From positions 650,140 to 714,139 of the forward strand of contig CAVTOC010000006.1 of the NCBI GenBank assembly GCA_963736335.1: a stretch of DNA of 64,000 bases. The letters run 5' to 3'. The stretch comes from an uncultured Actinomycetes bacterium. GTDB lineage: Bacteria; Actinomycetota; UBA4738; HRBIN12. Shown here in pieces: positions 11,537 to 32,197 of this stretch; position 1 is the stretch's first letter; every line of letters starts with the position of its first letter. A model generated the notes under the pieces. It ran no database searches and had not been told where the DNA came from. It saw nothing but the letters and a program-made list of their open reading frames with translations. The position numbers were made by a program, and so were the translations under genes.

Positions 11537-12529
11537 TCAGACCGGCTCGTCCTCGAGCTCGAGCACGGGATCCATCTCGTCCGGTTCGAGCGTGCCCACC
11601 GTTTCCTTGTGGATGGCGCGACGGTACAGCAGGAGCGTCGGAAGCTGTAGCGCGGCCGACGCGACGAGCGCGAGGGGGACCCCGATGCCCCCCGCGATCG
11701 CGCCGAGCACCGGCCCCCCCGCCGTCTGCCCCACCGCCGTCTGCCCCACCGCGTCGGCCTGACCGCCGACCGAGTTGATCGTCGCGCGGGTCTTCGGATC
11801 AAGCCCCTGGTTGATCCATACCCGGAACACCGGATCGCGCACGCTCCGGAGCGCGCCGACCACCCACATCGCCGCGAGCGCCACCCAGAACTGCCCCGTC
11901 AGCGCGAACGCGATGACACTAAGGACCAGGAAGACGTCGATCGCGGCCAGGATCCGCGCGACGGGGACGTGACCTTCCCTCCTCGGGCATCACGATCCAG
12001 AGCGCTGCAGCCAGCAGCAGCTGACCGGCGCCCGCCACGAGGATCGGCAACGCGAGGTTCACGGTCGCGAGCGCCACGCCCGCGACGATCCCCGCCAACG
12101 CGGCCGCATGCCAGAACTGATCGTCCCGGAGGTACAGCGGTCGAGCGGCAGTCTCCCCGACCTCGTCCGTGAGCCACGCGACGTCGGCGCCGCTCTCGAA
12201 CGTCGCGAAGCTCCCCCAGATCAGTTGCGAGGCAGCTGCCATCCCGAAGCTGTGCGAGAACCCGAGGAGCAGGAACCCGATGCCCCCCCGCCCAGGCCGA
12301 TGACGATGGACGTGCGCCGACTGATGGTGTCGGCCACGATACCGGTAGGCGTTTCGAACAAGAGGTACGAGCCCTCCAAGACCGTCCCCAACAGCACCAG
12401 CTGGAACGGACCGAGGCCCAATCGCAGGATGAGGAACACGCTGAAGATCACGCCCATCATCCGCGAGAAGAACCCGTTGATCGCCATATACGCGAGGAAC
12501 ACGGGGACGGCGCGCATCCGTCGGTTCAT
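11537..12529 (-). pseudogene. MFS transporter split over three frames (two 1-nt indels)
   Basis: Piece 1 (12529 to about 12295): MNRRMRAVPVFLAYMAINGFFSRMMGVIFSVFLILRLGLGPFQLVLLGTVLEGSYLLFETPTGIVADTISRRTSIVIGLG. Piece 2: GIGFLLLGFSHSFGMAAASQLIWGSFATFESG...LWIVMPEEG. Piece 3 (to 11537): HVPVARILAAIDVFLVLSVIAFALTGQFWVALAAMWVVGA...LELEDEPV. The junctions fall at a run of 7 C (about 12291-12297) and at about 11972. Confidence 0.75.
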
Positions 12530-16067: not shown

Positions 16068-17015
16068 TCACGGGATGAGACCGGCGGAGCGGTACGCGTC
16101 CTCGACGACCCGCATCACCACGCGGCCGTCCTCGCCGGACGGGCGCGGCTGGCGTCCCTCGCCGATCGCGTCCAGGAACTCCGCCACCTGCGCGCTGTAC
16201 ATCGGCTGCGTGCAGTGCTCGTAGTCGGCCGACGGAGCCTCCGCCGGCCAGATCCTCGCGTACCCCTTCGTCCCGTAGACCTCGGTGTCGGCCTCCAGTC
16301 CGCCCAGGTGAGGGTGCCACCATCCGGACTCCACGACGCTGTTCGTTCCGTTGTCCCACGCGATCATGACGACGCCGTCGTCGTCGACGGTGTAGCGGCC
16401 TTCCGCGTACCGCGTGCCGATGGTCGCGCAGACGCGGCCGGGCGCAGGATCGCCGAGCAGGTACCGGGCGGTGTCGATCGCGTGCACGCCCATGTCGACC
16501 AGCGCTCCTCCACCGGCGAGCTCCGGGTCGGTGAACCATCCGCTCGGGCCCCAGCCGGCGTGCACGCCGTAACCGTGGGTCTTCACGATCTCGCCGAGCT
16601 CTCCGGCCGCGATGCGCGCGCGCATCGCACGGACCTCGTCGCGGAACCGCCAGCAGTGCGCGACCATCAGGAACGCGCCACCCTCGTGCGATGCGGCGAT
16701 CATCTCGTCGCATCCGGCCACCGACGTCGCCATGGGCTTCTCGACCATCACGTGCTTCCCGTTGCGCAGCAACGCGGCTGATTGCGGAGCGTGGAGCGCG
16801 TTGGGCGTCGACACGACGGCCGCCTCGACCTCGGGATCGGCGGCCAGCGCCTCCCAGTCGGTGGTCACGCGCGGGATCCCGTACCGCTCGGCGAACGCTC
16901 GGGCCGTCTCCTCACGATGGTTCGCGACGGCGACGATCACGTCACCGTGCTCGAGCACGCCGCGGGCGTGGAAGTCCTGGATCCACCCGCAGCCGAACAG
17001 CGCGACGCGGGTCAT
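16068..17015 (-). CDS. Gfo/Idh/MocA-family NAD(P)-dependent oxidoreductase
   Basis: MTRVALFGCGWIQDFHARGV...VVSTPNALHAPQSAALLRNGKHVMVEKPMA. Confidence 0.85.
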   Translation of the reverse strand: MTRVALFGCGWIQDFHARGVLEHGDVIVAVANHREETARAFAERYGIPRVTTDWEALAADPEVEAAVVSTPNALHAPQSAALLRNGKHVMVEKPMATSVAGCDEMIAASHEGGAFLMVAHCWRFRDEVRAMRARIAAGELGEIVKTHGYGVHAGWGPSGWFTDPELAGGGALVDMGVHAIDTARYLLGDPAPGRVCATIGTRYAEGRYTVDDDGVVMIAWDNGTNSVVESGWWHPHLGGLEADTEVYGTKGYARIWPAEAPSADYEHCTQPMYSAQVAEFLDAIGEGRQPRPSGEDGRVVMRVVEDAYRSAGLIP

Positions 17016-17021
17016 GCGGCG

Positions 17022-17954
17022 CTAGCCCTTGACGCCGGTGAGCGTCACACCCTCGACGAACGCCCGCTGGGCGAGGAAGAACAGGATGATCAGCGGGAGC
17101 ATGAACATGATCGACATCGCCATGGTGAGGTTCCACTCGGTGCCGTGCCGCTGTTGGAACTCCGTGAGGCCGAGCGTCAGCGTCCAGAGGTGCTGGTTGT
17201 TCCCGACGAAGAGCAGCGGCGAGAACAGGTCGTTCCAGTTGTAGAGGAAGTTGAACAGCGCCACCGCGGCGATCGCGGGCTTGGCGAGTGGCACGATCAC
17301 GCGCGTCATGATCTGGAACTCGCTCGCGCCGTCCACGCGGGCGGCGTCGGAAAGCTCCTCGGGGATCGTCATGAAGAACTGTCGCAGCAGGAAGATCGAG
17401 AACGCGTCGCCCAGGAAGCTCGGGAGGATCAGCGGGGTCAGGTGGTCGATCTGGCCCAACCGCACCCACAGGACGTACAGCGGGACGATCGTCACCTGAA
17501 CGGGAAGCATCAACGTCGAGAGCACCAGGAGGAACGCCACCTGGCGACCCTTCCAGCGCATCCGTCGCGAGTGCATAGGCGACGGGGATGCACGACAGGA
17601 TGATCCCGACCGTCGACAGGAGCGCGATCTGCAGCGTGTTCCACGTGTACAGGAAGAACGGCACCCGATGGAAGACCTTCGCGAAGTTGCTCCACACGAA
17701 CGGGTGAGGGATGAACGAGGGCGTGACGGCCTGTTCGCTTGGTCATCAGCGCCGTCATGACGATGAAGAAGAACGGTGCCAGGAACATCGCGGCGAACGC
17801 GATCAGGATGGCGTGTTGCCCGACGGAGCTGAGGAAGCGGTGTCGCTTCACGTGCGGGGGGATCGGACGGGAGTCGATCGCCGGGGATCGCGCCGAGATC
17901 GAACGCCTCGCCGACCTCTTCGAGCCTGGTTCCCTGACCACCGATGGTCGTCAT
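17022..17954 (-). pseudogene. Carbohydrate ABC transporter permease (MalG/AraQ-like) with about 3 frameshifts
   Basis: The protein must be read across three frames: MTTIGGQGTRLEEVGEAFDLGAI | SPAIDSRPIPPHVKRHRFLSSVGQHAILIAFAAMFLAPFFFIVMTALMTK | ..PHPFVWSNFAKVFHRVPFFLYTWNTLQIALLSTVGIILSCIPVAYALA | RMRWKGRQVAFLLVLSTLMLP...DAARVDGASEFQIMTRVIVPLAKPA...GVKG. The 474-aa track ORF 17022-18446 is a chimera of in-frame and out-of-frame pieces. Confidence 0.8.
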
Positions 17955-18901
17955 CGGAACCCGCCTCCCTGGTAGTGGACCCATCGTCGCGACCCCTTCA
18001 CGATGGCGAGCGTGCAGATCATGGTGATGATGAACAGCACCCACGCCATGGCCGACGCGTAGCCCATGCGGAAGTCCTGGAATCCCTGTTGGTACAGGTA
18101 GATCGCAGTAGAAGAGCATCGAACCTTGGGGCGCGCCCAGGTTGGCGGCCGCCTCCGTCACCGAGCTCCCCGTCGCCGCCAGGCTCGCCACGTACGCCTG
18201 CGTGAAGAGCTGGAACCCGTAGATCACGCCGATGACGAGGGAGAAGAAGATCACCGGCGAGATCATGGGCAGCGTGACGAACCGGAACTTCTGCCGGCCG
18301 TTCGCGCCTTCGATCTCCGCCGCCTCATAGAGCTGCCGGGGAACGTCCAGCAGGCCGGCGAGGAAGATGATCATCGCGTCGCCGACACCCCACAGCCCGA
18401 GCATGACGAGACCCCACTTGGACGAGTTGGGACCGTAGAACCACAACGGAGGCTTGGCGACGCCCAGAGTGCATCAGGATCTGGTTGACGGGCCCGAACG
18501 ACGGGTTGAAGACGAGCACGAAGGCAAGCGCCGCCGCGGCGGGCGGGGCCATCGACGGCAGGAAGTACAGCGTGCGATACGTCCGCGACCCCGACCGAGG
18601 CAGCGTCAGCAGCCAGGCCGTGAAGATCGCGAACGCGATCCGCAGCGGGACCCCGACGATGATGATCCAGATCGTGTTGCGGAACGCCAGCCAGAAGAAC
18701 GGGTCCTTCGTGAACATGAACGTGTAGTTCTGCGGTGCCGATCCACACGGGCTGTTCGAGCAGGCTGTACTTCGTGAACGAGAAGTACAGGCTCGACACC
18801 ATCGGATACAGGATCAGCAGCAGGAACCCGAGGATCCACGGCGACATGAACAGCAGCACCGTCAGGCCGCGCTTGACGTTGCGCTTCCGGGGCCGACGCA
18901 C
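17951..18901 (-). pseudogene. Carbohydrate ABC transporter permease (MalF/AraP-like) with about 3 frameshifts
   Basis: Pieces: (GTG at 18901) RRPRKRNVKRGLTVLLFMSPWILGFLLLILYPMVSSLYFSFTKYSLLEQPVWIG | FTKDPFFWLAFRNTIWIIIVGVPLRIAFAIFTAWLLTL...GPVNQILMHSG | WFYGPNSSKWGLVMLGLWGVGDAMIIFLAGLLDVPRQLYEAAEIEGANGRQKFRFVTLPMISP...GSMLFY | AIYLYQQGFQDFRMGYASAMAWVLFIITMICTLAIVKGSRRWVHYQGGGFR. The stop overlaps the next ATG (ATGA). Confidence 0.8.
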
Positions 18902-18971
18902 GATGGCGTCGGCCCCGGAGGCGATCCCCGATCCCTGCTAATCCGGTCGTGCTCGTCGCACGTTCCTCTCG

Positions 18972-20337
18972 CTAGATCGCCGCTTGCGCGAGTAGATCGT
19001 TGATCTGCTTCGCGACGCTCGTGAGGCCAGCGTCGAGGTCCGTTTCCTTCCCTGCCTGCCAGTTCGCGGCGAACGCCCCAGGATGTCCTGATCCGCCGCG
19101 CCGATGGCCGACGGCTCCTTGTAGTGGGAGTTCGGGGTTCTCGAAGATGTCCAGGAACGTCTGGAACTGCGGGGTCACATCCAGGTCCGGCGAGCTGAGC
19201 GAGTCGAGCGTCGTCGGCACGTTCCGGACGTTGTTGGCCATGTACACCAGCGTCGGCGGTGTCCGTCGCCATGTAGTCGACGAGCAGCCATGCCTCGTCG
19301 GGGTGCGGCGAACCCTTCGGGATGCCGATGATCGTGCCGCCGACCGGCCCGCGCCCGTAGGTGGTCCACCTGATCGTCGGGCAACGGAACGGAGCCGTCG
19401 CGTATTGCAGATCAGGCGCCTCGTCAGCGATGAACGCCGTCCGCCACTCGCCGTCGAAGTTCATCGCCACCCGGCCGGTCTGCGAAGTCCTGTGCGCGTC
19501 GAGAACTCGTCTCCCGCATCCAGCCACGAACCGCTGCAACTGGTCGGACCCCGTCTGGAAGTCGCCGCCTCCGTATACGTTTGCGATGAAGTCGTGCTGC
19601 CATTGGAACATGGCTTTCCACGCGGGGTCGGTGTCCACCACCGATCTTCGTGCCGTCGTCGTTGTACCACTTCGCGCCGAAGAGGTTCCCCAGGTTGCGG
19701 CGTGCTGAACTCGTAGTGGCCGAACCACGGGACGAAGCCGGCGACCTTGATCGATCCGTCGGAGTTGAAGACCGTGAGCTTCTTCGCGTCGGCCTCGAGC
19801 TCGGTGAGCGTCTTCGGGCGCGTCCGCGATACCCGCCTTCTTGAACATATCCGTGTTGTAGTACAGGCCCGTAGGCGTCCGTGAGGAACGGGAACGCGCA
19901 GCGGCTCCCGCGAAGCTCGTGTAGGCCTCGACCGACGGCGGGAACTGGCTGACGTCGAACCCGCTCTGCTCGATGTACGGGTTCAGGTCCTGCCACGCGC
20001 CGGAGGCGCAGAACTGTCCCACGCTGTCCAGCGTGAACGAGAGGACGGCGTCGGGCGGGTTGCCGCGTTGATCGAGGCGATGATCTTCTGGTCGTTCACG
20101 CCACCCACGCTGTTGACCGTGATCCAGGGGTACTTCTCCGTGAAACCGTTGAAGATCTGGTTGAACTGCTGGAGCTCGCGACCGGTCCAGGCGCCCCAGA
20201 TCGTGCAACGTCACCGGTGCGTGCGAGGTACCGCTGCCCGTGTCGATCGCGGACGGCGCATCGCTGCTGCCGCCGCCGGCGGTGCACGCCGCGGTCACCA
20301 GCGCGAACGTCGTCATGGCGATGAGCCATCGCTTCAT
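18972..20337 (-). pseudogene. ABC sugar-binding lipoprotein with at least 12 frameshifts
   Basis: ATG at 20337 with GGAGGGA upstream. Lipoprotein signal MKRWLIAMTTFALVTAACTAGG. Sensible sequence hops between frames: ...HAPVTL | IWGAWTGRELQQFNQIFNGFTEKYPWITVNSVGGVNDQKIIASINA | GNPPDAVLSFTLDSVGQFCASGAWQDLNPYIEQSGFDVSQFPPSVEAYTSFAG | GSRCAFPFLTDAYG | LYYNTDMFKKAGIADAP | KTLTELEADAKKLTVFNSDGSIKVAGFVPWFGHYEFSTPQ | NLGNLFGAKWYNDDGTKI | VVDTDPAWKAMFQWQHDFIANVYGGGDFQTGSDQLQRFVAG | ... | ANNVRNVPTTLDSLSSPDLDVTPQFQTFLDIFENP | NSHYKEPSAIGAADQDILG | AFAANWQAGKETDLDAGLTSVAKQINDLLAQAAI. Confidence 0.8.
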
Positions 20338-20355
20338 GTCTCGTCTCCCTCCTCT

Positions 20356-20383
20356 GGGATCGGGACCAGGGTCCCTGATCCCC
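20356..20383. promoter_or_regulatory. Imperfect 12-13-bp inverted repeat between rok and the binding-protein gene (terminator, attenuator or operator)
   Basis: GGGATCGGGACC-A-GGGTCCCTGATCCC. It lies 40 nt after the rok stop and about 20 nt before the SBP ribosome-binding site. Confidence 0.3.
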
Positions 20384-20423
20384 TCGCTCTTCATCCAAGT
20401 ACGATCCCGCGCGACGTCCGGGA

Positions 20424-21638
20424 TCATGCGGACGCCTCTCCTCGTGCGAACAGCTGATCCTGCGCGGCCTGCAGCGCCATCGACACCGAGCCGTAGAGCG
20501 TCGCCTCCTGCTGCAGGGTCGAGCACTCCACCCGAGGGCGGAACGGCGACAGCTCACGCAGCTCGCGGGCGACAGGATCCAACAGGAGGTCACCGTTGGA
20601 GCCGATGCCGCCACCCAGGATCACCAGCTCCGGATCGACCACCGACGCCACCGCGACGATCGCGAGCGCGATCCGATGCGCCTCGGCAGCGACCACCCGG
20701 CGAGCCTTGCGATCGCCTCGCCGAGCCTCCTCGAACACCTTCTTCGCGGTCAGCGGCGGCGGCATCCCCAGCCGGCGCGCGTCGGCGACGACCCCGGTCG
20801 CGCTCGCCGCGGCATCGAGGGCTCCACGACGTCGGCTCGACGGGTCTCGGAGATCGGTCTCGGCCAGCGGCATGTATCCGACCTCGCCGGCCGCGCCGGC
20901 GCTCCCCCGGTACAGCTCGCCGTTCAGAACCATTCCCATCCCGACGCCGGTGCCCAGATGCAGATACACGAAGTCGTCGACGCCCTTGCCGAGTCCCTGC
21001 CACTGCTCGCCGATCGCGGCGAGGTTCACATCGTTCTCGAACGCGATGTTCGTCCCGAGCTCGTGTTGAACGAGCTCGACCAGCCCCTGCCGTCCCCATC
21101 CCGGCAGCGCGTATGCGAGTGAGACCTGACCGCGCTCCGGCTCGAACACGCCGGGGCTCCCGACGACCGCGAACGTCACCTGCCCCCACTTGATGCCGGC
21201 ATCGGCGGCAAGAGCGTGCGCGATGGCGCCGATCTGCGTGATGAGGGTCTTCGCGCTCTTCACCTGGGCGCGCTCGTCCCGGCGGGCGACGAACTGACCG
21301 GTGACGTCGGCGATCGCGGCACGAACCCAATCCCTGCCGACGTCGATCCCGACGACCCATCCTGCCTGGGGGTTCAACTCGTAGAGCAGGGCGGTCGGGC
21401 CCTTCCCGCCGCTGGTGCGGCCGGCCTCCCGAACCAGGCCGGCGTCGAGCAACGTCAAGAGTGCCTGCGACACCGTGGGTTTCGACAGCGCGGTCTCGCG
21501 GGCGATCTGCGCACGCGAGACGGGGCCAACCCGCCGGACGCTCTCGAGGACCGTCCGCTCGTTGATCGCCCGAAGCAGGCTTGGGGTGCCACCGACGGAC
21601 GTGCGCTCGACGCTCGTTTCGCCCTCCCCCCAGCGCAA
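20424..21638 (-). CDS. ROK-family transcriptional regulator (NagC/XylR-like)
   Basis: N-terminal wHTH LLRAINERTVLESVRRVGPVSRAQIARETALSKPTVSQALLTLLDAGLV, followed by a ROK sugar-kinase-like fold (VGIDVGRDWV..., GAAGEVGYMPL). The only in-frame start is TTG at 21638. Confidence 0.85.
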   Translation of the reverse strand: MRWGEGETSVERTSVGGTPSLLRAINERTVLESVRRVGPVSRAQIARETALSKPTVSQALLTLLDAGLVREAGRTSGGKGPTALLYELNPQAGWVVGIDVGRDWVRAAIADVTGQFVARRDERAQVKSAKTLITQIGAIAHALAADAGIKWGQVTFAVVGSPGVFEPERGQVSLAYALPGWGRQGLVELVQHELGTNIAFENDVNLAAIGEQWQGLGKGVDDFVYLHLGTGVGMGMVLNGELYRGSAGAAGEVGYMPLAETDLRDPSSRRRGALDAAASATGVVADARRLGMPPPLTAKKVFEEARRGDRKARRVVAAEAHRIALAIVAVASVVDPELVILGGGIGSNGDLLLDPVARELRELSPFRPRVECSTLQQEATLYGSVSMALQAAQDQLFARGEASA

Positions 21639-31525: not shown

Positions 31526-32197
31526 ATGCACACCTCGGAGCTGAACGGCTGGTGGAAGATCGTTTCGGCCGTCTCGAACTTCTTCATGCGTGTGACCTTC
31601 CGGGTCCACGTCGAGGGAGCCTGGCATGTGCCTTCGCAGGGACCCGCGATCGTCGCGTTCAACCATGTGAGCGTCATCGACGGACCGGCCGTCGCGATCG
31701 TCGTCGCCAGGAAGCGGCGTCGCGAATCGCGATTCCTTGTCGCCGCGGAGGTGTTCCACCAGCGCGTGGCAGGCTGGATCCTCCGGTCGTTCGATCAGAT
31801 CCCGATCCGGCGTGGGCAGGGCGACTCCGGCGCCCTCGACGAGGCGGTCCGAACGATCGCAGCCGGTGCTATCGCCGCGATCGCGCCCGAGGGACGCGTC
31901 AACGACGACGGGGCCACAGAGATGCTGCGGTTCCACCGCGGGGTCGCGCGTCTGGCGCTCGCGACGAAGGCTCCGGTGATCCCGGTGGGGATCTGGGGCT
32001 CACAGGTGCGGTGGCCGAAGAGCGGCCGCCGCTACGGCCCGCCGTGGCGCCCGCGGCTCGCGTTCGTCTTCGGCGACGTCGTCGCCCCCGAAGGCGATCC
32101 GTCGGATGCCGATGACCTCGCGGCGTTCACCCAACGCGTCCGCGAGGCGATCGAGGTGCACGTCACCGAGGCACGCATCATCACGCAGAGGCGATGA
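31526..32197 (+). CDS. plsC: 1-acyl-sn-glycerol-3-phosphate acyltransferase family protein
   Basis: HxxxxD motif NHVSVIDG; FDQIPIRRG; APEGRV. This is the last 223 codons of track ORF 30506-32197. Confidence 0.8.
   Translation: MHTSELNGWWKIVSAVSNFFMRVTFRVHVEGAWHVPSQGPAIVAFNHVSVIDGPAVAIVVARKRRRESRFLVAAEVFHQRVAGWILRSFDQIPIRRGQGDSGALDEAVRTIAAGAIAAIAPEGRVNDDGATEMLRFHRGVARLALATKAPVIPVGIWGSQVRWPKSGRRYGPPWRPRLAFVFGDVVAPEGDPSDADDLAAFTQRVREAIEVHVTEARIITQRR

Follow-up and report, generated by a model that had tools for sequence, protein, structure and literature searches.

The minus-strand segment 17022-20337 of the window, by which we mean the whole 64-kb stretch of DNA analyzed here, raises the question of whether a sugar importer whose reading frames are broken throughout has decayed in the organism that carries it or has been damaged only in the deposited sequence. 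An earlier note on this DNA, which proposed that the importer was riddled with about 18 frameshifts, offered two alternatives, namely very recent, indel-driven decay and a stretch that was locally misassembled or poorly polished. The first of these would imply that the cell has lost uptake for a pathway whose cytoplasmic part it retains. The orthologous loci, the substitutions that accompany the indels, and the rest of the genome are taken in turn below.

The importer operon and its neighbors

The segment encodes an ordinary three-gene ABC sugar importer of the CUT1 type, consisting of a lipoprotein solute-binding protein (SBP) and two permeases, with a ROK regulator over it. The SBP gene occupies 18972-20337 on the minus strand, from an ATG at 20337-20335 to a TAG at 18974-18972, and both the window's own longest ORF and the intact orthologue of the congener G010 match the Pfam families SBP_bac_1 and SBP_bac_8. 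Permease 1 lies at 17951-18901 (minus strand; GTG at 18901, TGA at 17953-17951) and permease 2 at 17022-17954 (minus strand; TAG at 17024-17022), the latter starting either from an ATG at 17954 or from a GTG at 17851. BPD_transp_1 is matched by both permeases, in the ORF fragments of the window as well as in the intact orthologues of G010. The EAA loops, which the earlier note had described as preserved, are visible in the translations of the window's ORFs; the one belonging to permease 1, EAAEIEGANGRQKFRFVTLPMISP, is found within the ORF at 17022-18446. It is this combination of a family 1/8 SBP, two BPD_transp_1 permeases, and visible EAA motifs that places the system in the CUT1 type.

The surroundings of the operon are largely, if not uniformly, clean. 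Directly upstream of the transporter lies a ROK-family regulator with an N-terminal HTH (20424-21638, minus strand; Pfam ROK, MarR_2, and HTH), which is intact and shows no frame switch. Directly downstream is an intact Gfo/Idh/MocA oxidoreductase (16068-17015, minus strand; Pfam GFO_IDH_MocA), and an FGGY gene on the same downstream side is intact as well. None of these three neighbors carries a single indel unique to this assembly. The assertion that all neighboring genes are intact thus holds for rok, gfo, and FGGY, but it fails for a nearby DegT aminotransferase, which has one frameshift at about 22194.

The six-frame ORF list contains no ATPase gene belonging to the operon. In this, and in the SBP_bac_1/8 lipoprotein, the two EAA-loop BPD_transp_1 permeases, and the ROK neighbor, the system resembles the known actinobacterial CUT1 importers, which combine an SBP and two permeases with a shared MsiK-type ATPase and are often ROK-regulated. 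It differs from them in that this frame-broken copy is readable only by way of its intact orthologues. Elsewhere in the genome, a candidate MsiK-like ATPase was recognized by eye at C5:236-237 kb, inside another patch of frameshifts.

Indels and substitutions at the importer

The earlier note had proposed comparison with orthologous loci as a check. When 40 related genomes were searched at the DNA level, full-length collinear loci were recovered at 69-93% identity, and the nine best of these, all from congeners, were aligned using MAFFT with positions 16901-20500 of the window (minus strand). In the window, the SBP and both permeases are spread over all three minus-strand frames, as seen in the six-frame ORFs. 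By contrast, all three genes have intact ORFs in eight of the nine orthologous loci, the exception being the closest one, G009, in which permease 2 is broken. The alignment reveals 22 indels unique to the window, every one of them of 1 nt (17 insertions and 5 deletions), concentrated in a patch of 2.64 kb (17565-20203) at a density of about 1 per 120 bp. None of the 22 is common to the window and any of the nine relatives. Even under the strictest criterion, the window retains 21 unique indels of a length that is not a multiple of three, whereas each of the nine orthologous loci has between 0 and 6.

In the direction of transcription, the indels fall at 20203, 20066, 19910, 19871, 19815, 19697, 19644, 19519, 19498, 19482, 19389, 19364, 19256, 19132, 19078, 18931, 18732, 18468, 18107, 17880, 17737, and 17565; the five deletions include those at 20066, 19910, 19389, and 19078. 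Fifteen affect the SBP, and one, at 18931, is intergenic, in the spacer between the SBP and permease 1. Permease 1 has three insertions (18732, 18468, and 18107) and permease 2 has two (17737 and 17565), while the remaining one, at 17880, sits at the junction of the two permeases or in the N-terminus of permease 2, of which it becomes a third insertion if the upstream start is taken. These counts of 15, 3, and 2-3 agree with the at least 12 frame changes in the SBP and about 3 per permease that had been read from the sequence beforehand, and the junction coordinates given at that time are also in agreement with the indel positions from the alignment. The final 540 nt of permease 2 have no unique indel at all; hence, the patch stops inside a gene and not at a gene boundary. 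The window's indels are likewise absent from independent metagenome contigs of other projects, which span the operon wholly or in part. These contigs reach at most about 92.5% nucleotide identity to the window, and an intact copy from the same species was not found among those scanned.

The substitutions in the three genes give a different picture from the indels. With an orthologue supplying the intact frames, the substitutions unique to the lineage of the window number 32 (23 synonymous, 9 non-synonymous); 23 of the 32 fall at third codon positions. The corresponding counts for the two nearest sisters are 42 (G009) and 67 (G010), and the branch leading to the window is no longer than theirs. 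The importer branch is therefore short and has kept the signature of purifying selection, and relaxed selection, in the form of excess substitutions distributed evenly over codon positions, is not seen in the three importer genes. As a result, the ratio of indels to substitutions is about 0.7 in the window but about 0.04 for the lineage of G010.

Two readings that admit real mutations in the importer have to be weighed against these observations. One is that errors account for most of the frameshifts but that one or two of them are real and inactivate the genes. Soil actinobacteria commonly lose transporters, and this counts in favor of such a mixture; however, no indel is common to the window and any relative, the retained synonymous bias points to function until very recently, and no prior singles out this operon among the roughly 40 other patches described below. 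We therefore regard it as improbable. We give still less credence to a genuine, very recent pseudogenization of the whole operon, with uptake lost and the cytoplasmic pathway kept. In its favor, the deposited sequence does have broken frames, and the lesions cluster in a single operon between a clean rok and a clean gfo. Yet 22 indels stand against only 32 lineage-specific, mostly synonymous substitutions, and decay is unlikely because drift long enough to yield so many indels should also have left far more substitutions, distributed evenly among the codon positions. The lesions also have the wrong character. In natural bacterial pseudogenes, deletions predominate, indels differ in length, and slippage occurs in homopolymers; this spectrum is not seen in the importer, where the indels are all of 1 nt, biased toward insertion, and mostly outside homopolymers, and where the patch ends within permease 2. 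The genome does share with pseudogene-rich reductive genomes of the Mycobacterium leprae type the presence of many frameshift-interrupted genes. Unlike these, it shows no excess of substitutions, no build-up of stop codons, and no larger deletions, and the genes affected include essential ones: the same lesions occur in dnaA, dnaN, atpA, atpD, and the nuo genes, which cannot all be dead.

Patches across the genome and the character of the insertions

The distribution of frameshifts over the whole genome was followed on all six contigs with a 7-state Viterbi frame tracker, using a codon log-odds model trained on this genome's long ORFs with high third-position GC. This detected 796 candidate same-strand frame switches without a nearby stop codon to explain them, or 0.2-0.28 per kb. 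With the same detector, the control congener G012 (96% complete; 320 kb) has 0.04-0.08 switches per kb, and the congener G010 (85% complete) has 0.34 per kb. The events are heavily clustered: 40 clusters of at least four events hold 253 of them (32%) in about 57 kb, or about 1.7% of the genome, and 41 5-kb bins contain at least five events where a Poisson model predicts 4.8. The importer patch is the second-largest cluster in the genome. Within the 64-kb window, the tracker places 13 switches in the 2.6 kb of the patch and 6 in the other 61 kb, the latter near 11976, 12288, 22194 (the DegT gene), 48567, 61872, and 63774. The rRNA operon was considered as a source of false clusters and rejected, in that the single LSU rRNA gene (C5:970.6-973.7 kb) overlaps no cluster and the lone cluster of G012 is not an Rfam RNA.

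The remaining clusters strike genes of widely differing function. By eye, in the frame-tracked translations, we recognized nuoK-N of complex I; a NiFe hydrogenase with hypF, hypD, and hypE; kdpB and kdpC; an H+-pyrophosphatase; P-type ATPases; aminotransferases; and two other ABC systems, with Pfam confirming the NuoL and NuoN families and the hydrogenase. In the 7.5-kb nuoK-N region, alignment gives 88 unique indels (81 insertions and 7 deletions), where five congeners have 0-2 apiece. There, the unique substitutions are nearly equal in this genome and its nearest relative G010 (90 versus 87), whereas the indels stand at 88 versus 1. Of the 37 unique indels in the hydrogenase region, 33 are insertions and 4 are deletions; in this region G010 has 25 of its own. 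More generally, G010 and G009, which are related metagenome-assembled genomes (MAGs) of the same pipeline kind, have their own independent patches.

The genes that bear most directly on the question are those that a cell cannot dispense with. In the atp operon, alignment identifies eight unique 1-nt insertions in atpA, atpD, atpC, and an adjacent murA-like gene, with no unique insertions there in G010 or G006, and the dnaN/dnaA region has four unique insertions by the same approach. Frame switches lie inside Pfam-named ATP synthase alpha, ATP synthase beta, DnaA, DNA polymerase III beta, and an enzyme of the EPSP-synthase family (MurA-like). The motif scan that had drawn attention to the atp operon and to dnaA found the diagnostic motifs of DnaA, AtpA, and AtpD in one copy each in the genome. 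Since these essential, single-copy genes are affected and the cell cannot have lost them all, the insertions are to be read as errors of the consensus sequence. An alternative that would keep the patches real in the living population is that a tract-wise, insertion-biased mutational process, for example low-fidelity repair synthesis along tracts of 2-8 kb, has very recently shredded the importer and dozens of other operons, the lineage being near extinction or the DNA a relic; we consider this a very remote prospect.

The insertions themselves show no sign of a specific cause. For 129 validated 1-nt insertions pooled for analysis of their context, no flanking 4-mer is enriched after multiple testing, and GATC is present at 17.8% against a background of 13.9%; an error specific to a methylation motif or other k-mer was rejected on these grounds. 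G and C make up 74% of the inserted bases, in a genome of 69% GC. Among the 1-nt insertions of the nuo region, 18 of 68 equal a neighboring base, and only 5 of 68 lengthen a run of at least two identical bases, a result on which homopolymer slippage was rejected. Preference for a codon phase is also absent, with 58 of 82 insertions adjacent to position 3 (71% versus a null expectation of 67%; p = 0.48). Thus, the insertions behave as random, and programmed recoding, homopolymer slippage, and motif-specific miscalls are ruled out. A reading of the frame changes as programmed recoding, whether by ribosomal frameshifting or by slippage during transcription, or as a systematic miscall at a methylation motif has nothing in its favor beyond the existence of these changes, and with 129 sites lacking a common motif, GATC enrichment, a homopolymer or slippery context, and a codon-phase preference, and with orthologues that read in a single frame, its probability is negligible.

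Other sources of the patches were also considered. The "doubling" of strain SNPs is a candidate source of the insertions: their flanks are more variable than expected by chance, though alignment ambiguity may account for this, and the lack of a codon-position preference noted above speaks against it. The lower GC of the importer patch (64% versus 70%) might have indicated foreign or misjoined DNA, but the nine orthologous operons all lie at 63.5-66% GC, so that a GC of 64% is native to the operon. Cross-assembly with a paralogue was likewise rejected, as the genome has no second copy of the operon above 71% identity.

Provenance of the assembly and consequences for annotation

The genome is highly contiguous, with 6 contigs, two of them above 1.4 Mb, and yet its estimated completeness is 87%. 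The textbook Nanopore error profile is one of deletions in homopolymers, which insertion-dominated errors outside homopolymers do not fit. Compared with the Nanopore residuals commonly described, which are homopolymer deletions and more evenly spread, the errors in this genome are strongly patchy, dominated by insertions, and not associated with homopolymers. In the public collection, its congeners are represented by MFD-LR (Microflora Danica long-read) soil MAGs, and judging from these relatives, the present genome is probably of Nanopore provenance too. The MFD-LR catalogue consists of Nanopore-only assemblies that received one round of Medaka to lower indel errors (PMC12313526), and the error rates of long reads are known to give frameshifts that pseudogenize genes (PMC12007338, Kastor). 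The patches resemble the residual indel errors described for long-read assemblies and MAGs (PMC12007338, Kastor; PMC8011154, Homopolish; PMC12313526) in that single-base indels that are unique to one assembly break otherwise conserved genes and lower CheckM-type completeness despite high contiguity.

Taken together, we consider it highly probable that the frameshifts are a local patch of consensus errors over an intact CUT1-type ABC importer, and neither a real feature nor gene decay, because the indels are unique to the assembly, biased toward insertion, 1 nt in length, random in context, unaccompanied by extra substitutions, and recurrent in essential single-copy genes. Of the two alternatives posed at the outset, the misassembled or poorly polished stretch is thus strongly supported by comparative and genome-wide evidence, whereas very recent indel-driven decay is unsupported. 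The 22 frameshifts would then be leftover consensus errors, chiefly spurious single-base insertions, though one or a few of them may be real, and the importer patch would be one of about 40 such low-quality patches in a long-read MAG. Their cause may lie in local low read depth or in mixed-strain read pile-ups, in a Nanopore-only consensus of the Flye/Medaka type.

The finding is chiefly a data-quality warning for annotators of this MAG. The density of frameshifts is strongly patchy, with about one third of the detected events in less than 2% of the sequence, and per-genome quality scores consequently mask local stretches on which no inference about individual genes can be based. Annotation taken at face value would score the ABC importer, complex I, ATP synthase, the hydrogenase, Kdp, and others as lost and would lead to a broken pathway being assumed where the pathway is very probably intact. 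For the organism itself, the loss of sugar uptake suggested in the earlier note is not to be concluded: the frameshifts are most likely consensus errors, the importer is very probably intact, and, as far as can be judged from the sequence comparisons, all three of its genes are most likely whole in the living cell.

Frame-disrupting indels elsewhere in the genome

Alignment confirmed other error patches in the genome that carries the window (G000), with 88 unique indels across nuoK-N (contig C6, 402-409.5 kb), 37 across an NiFe hydrogenase (C6, 852-857.5 kb), 8 across the atp operon and a murA-like gene (C5, 621.5-629.5 kb), and 4 across dnaN/dnaA (C6, 1022-1025.5 kb). Further ABC sugar-transporter loci, one comprising a binding protein and permeases (C1, 21.6-24.5 kb) and another an MsiK-like ATPase and a permease (C5, 236-239.4 kb), lie inside clusters of frame switches, i.e., same-strand changes of frame called by the codon-usage tracker. 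The patches of this genome seem to show an excess of membrane-protein operons, possibly by chance.

Within the window but outside the patch over the ABC operon, the tracker also called isolated switches at window 11976, 12288, 22194, 48567, 61872, and 63774. The genes holding them were named in the earlier note as an MFS transporter, a DegT aminotransferase, an NPP paralogue, and a PKD-repeat protein. Single-nucleotide indels relative to the congener G010 match the switches at 12288, 22196, and about 61880. The isolated switches are probably errors of the same type as those of the patch, occurring at background density.

Independent patches in related genomes

Related MAGs display their own independent insertion patches, sited elsewhere than in G000. 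Contig C4 of G010 has 27 frame switches, concentrated in its final 25 kb (53-78 kb; stretches L018-L021), and the hydrogenase region of the same genome (C6, 424-430 kb; stretch L050) has 25 unique indels. In the congener G009, the ABC locus (stretch L002, contig C25) bears 4 unique 1-nt insertions, and these disrupt permease 2. The otherwise clean control genome, G012, has a single cluster of 9 switches (C5, 242.7-245.7 kb; stretch L033), and no Rfam RNA was found there.

Composition and structure of the window

The GC content of the ABC operon (window 17000-20500) is ~64%, as against 69-71% in its flanks, and this dip is common to all nine of the nine congener orthologues. Window positions 32197 and 32205 adjoin, and the corresponding points in G010 lie ~6.8 kb apart (C4, 37396-44222), a difference reflecting sequence either inserted in G010 or deleted from the window. 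Coding sequences at window 4.1-7.2 kb and 60.5-62.3 kb contain internal repeats, with units of ~1 kb and ~260 bp that match one another at 68-79% (BLAST against G010); these probably encode repeat-domain surface proteins.
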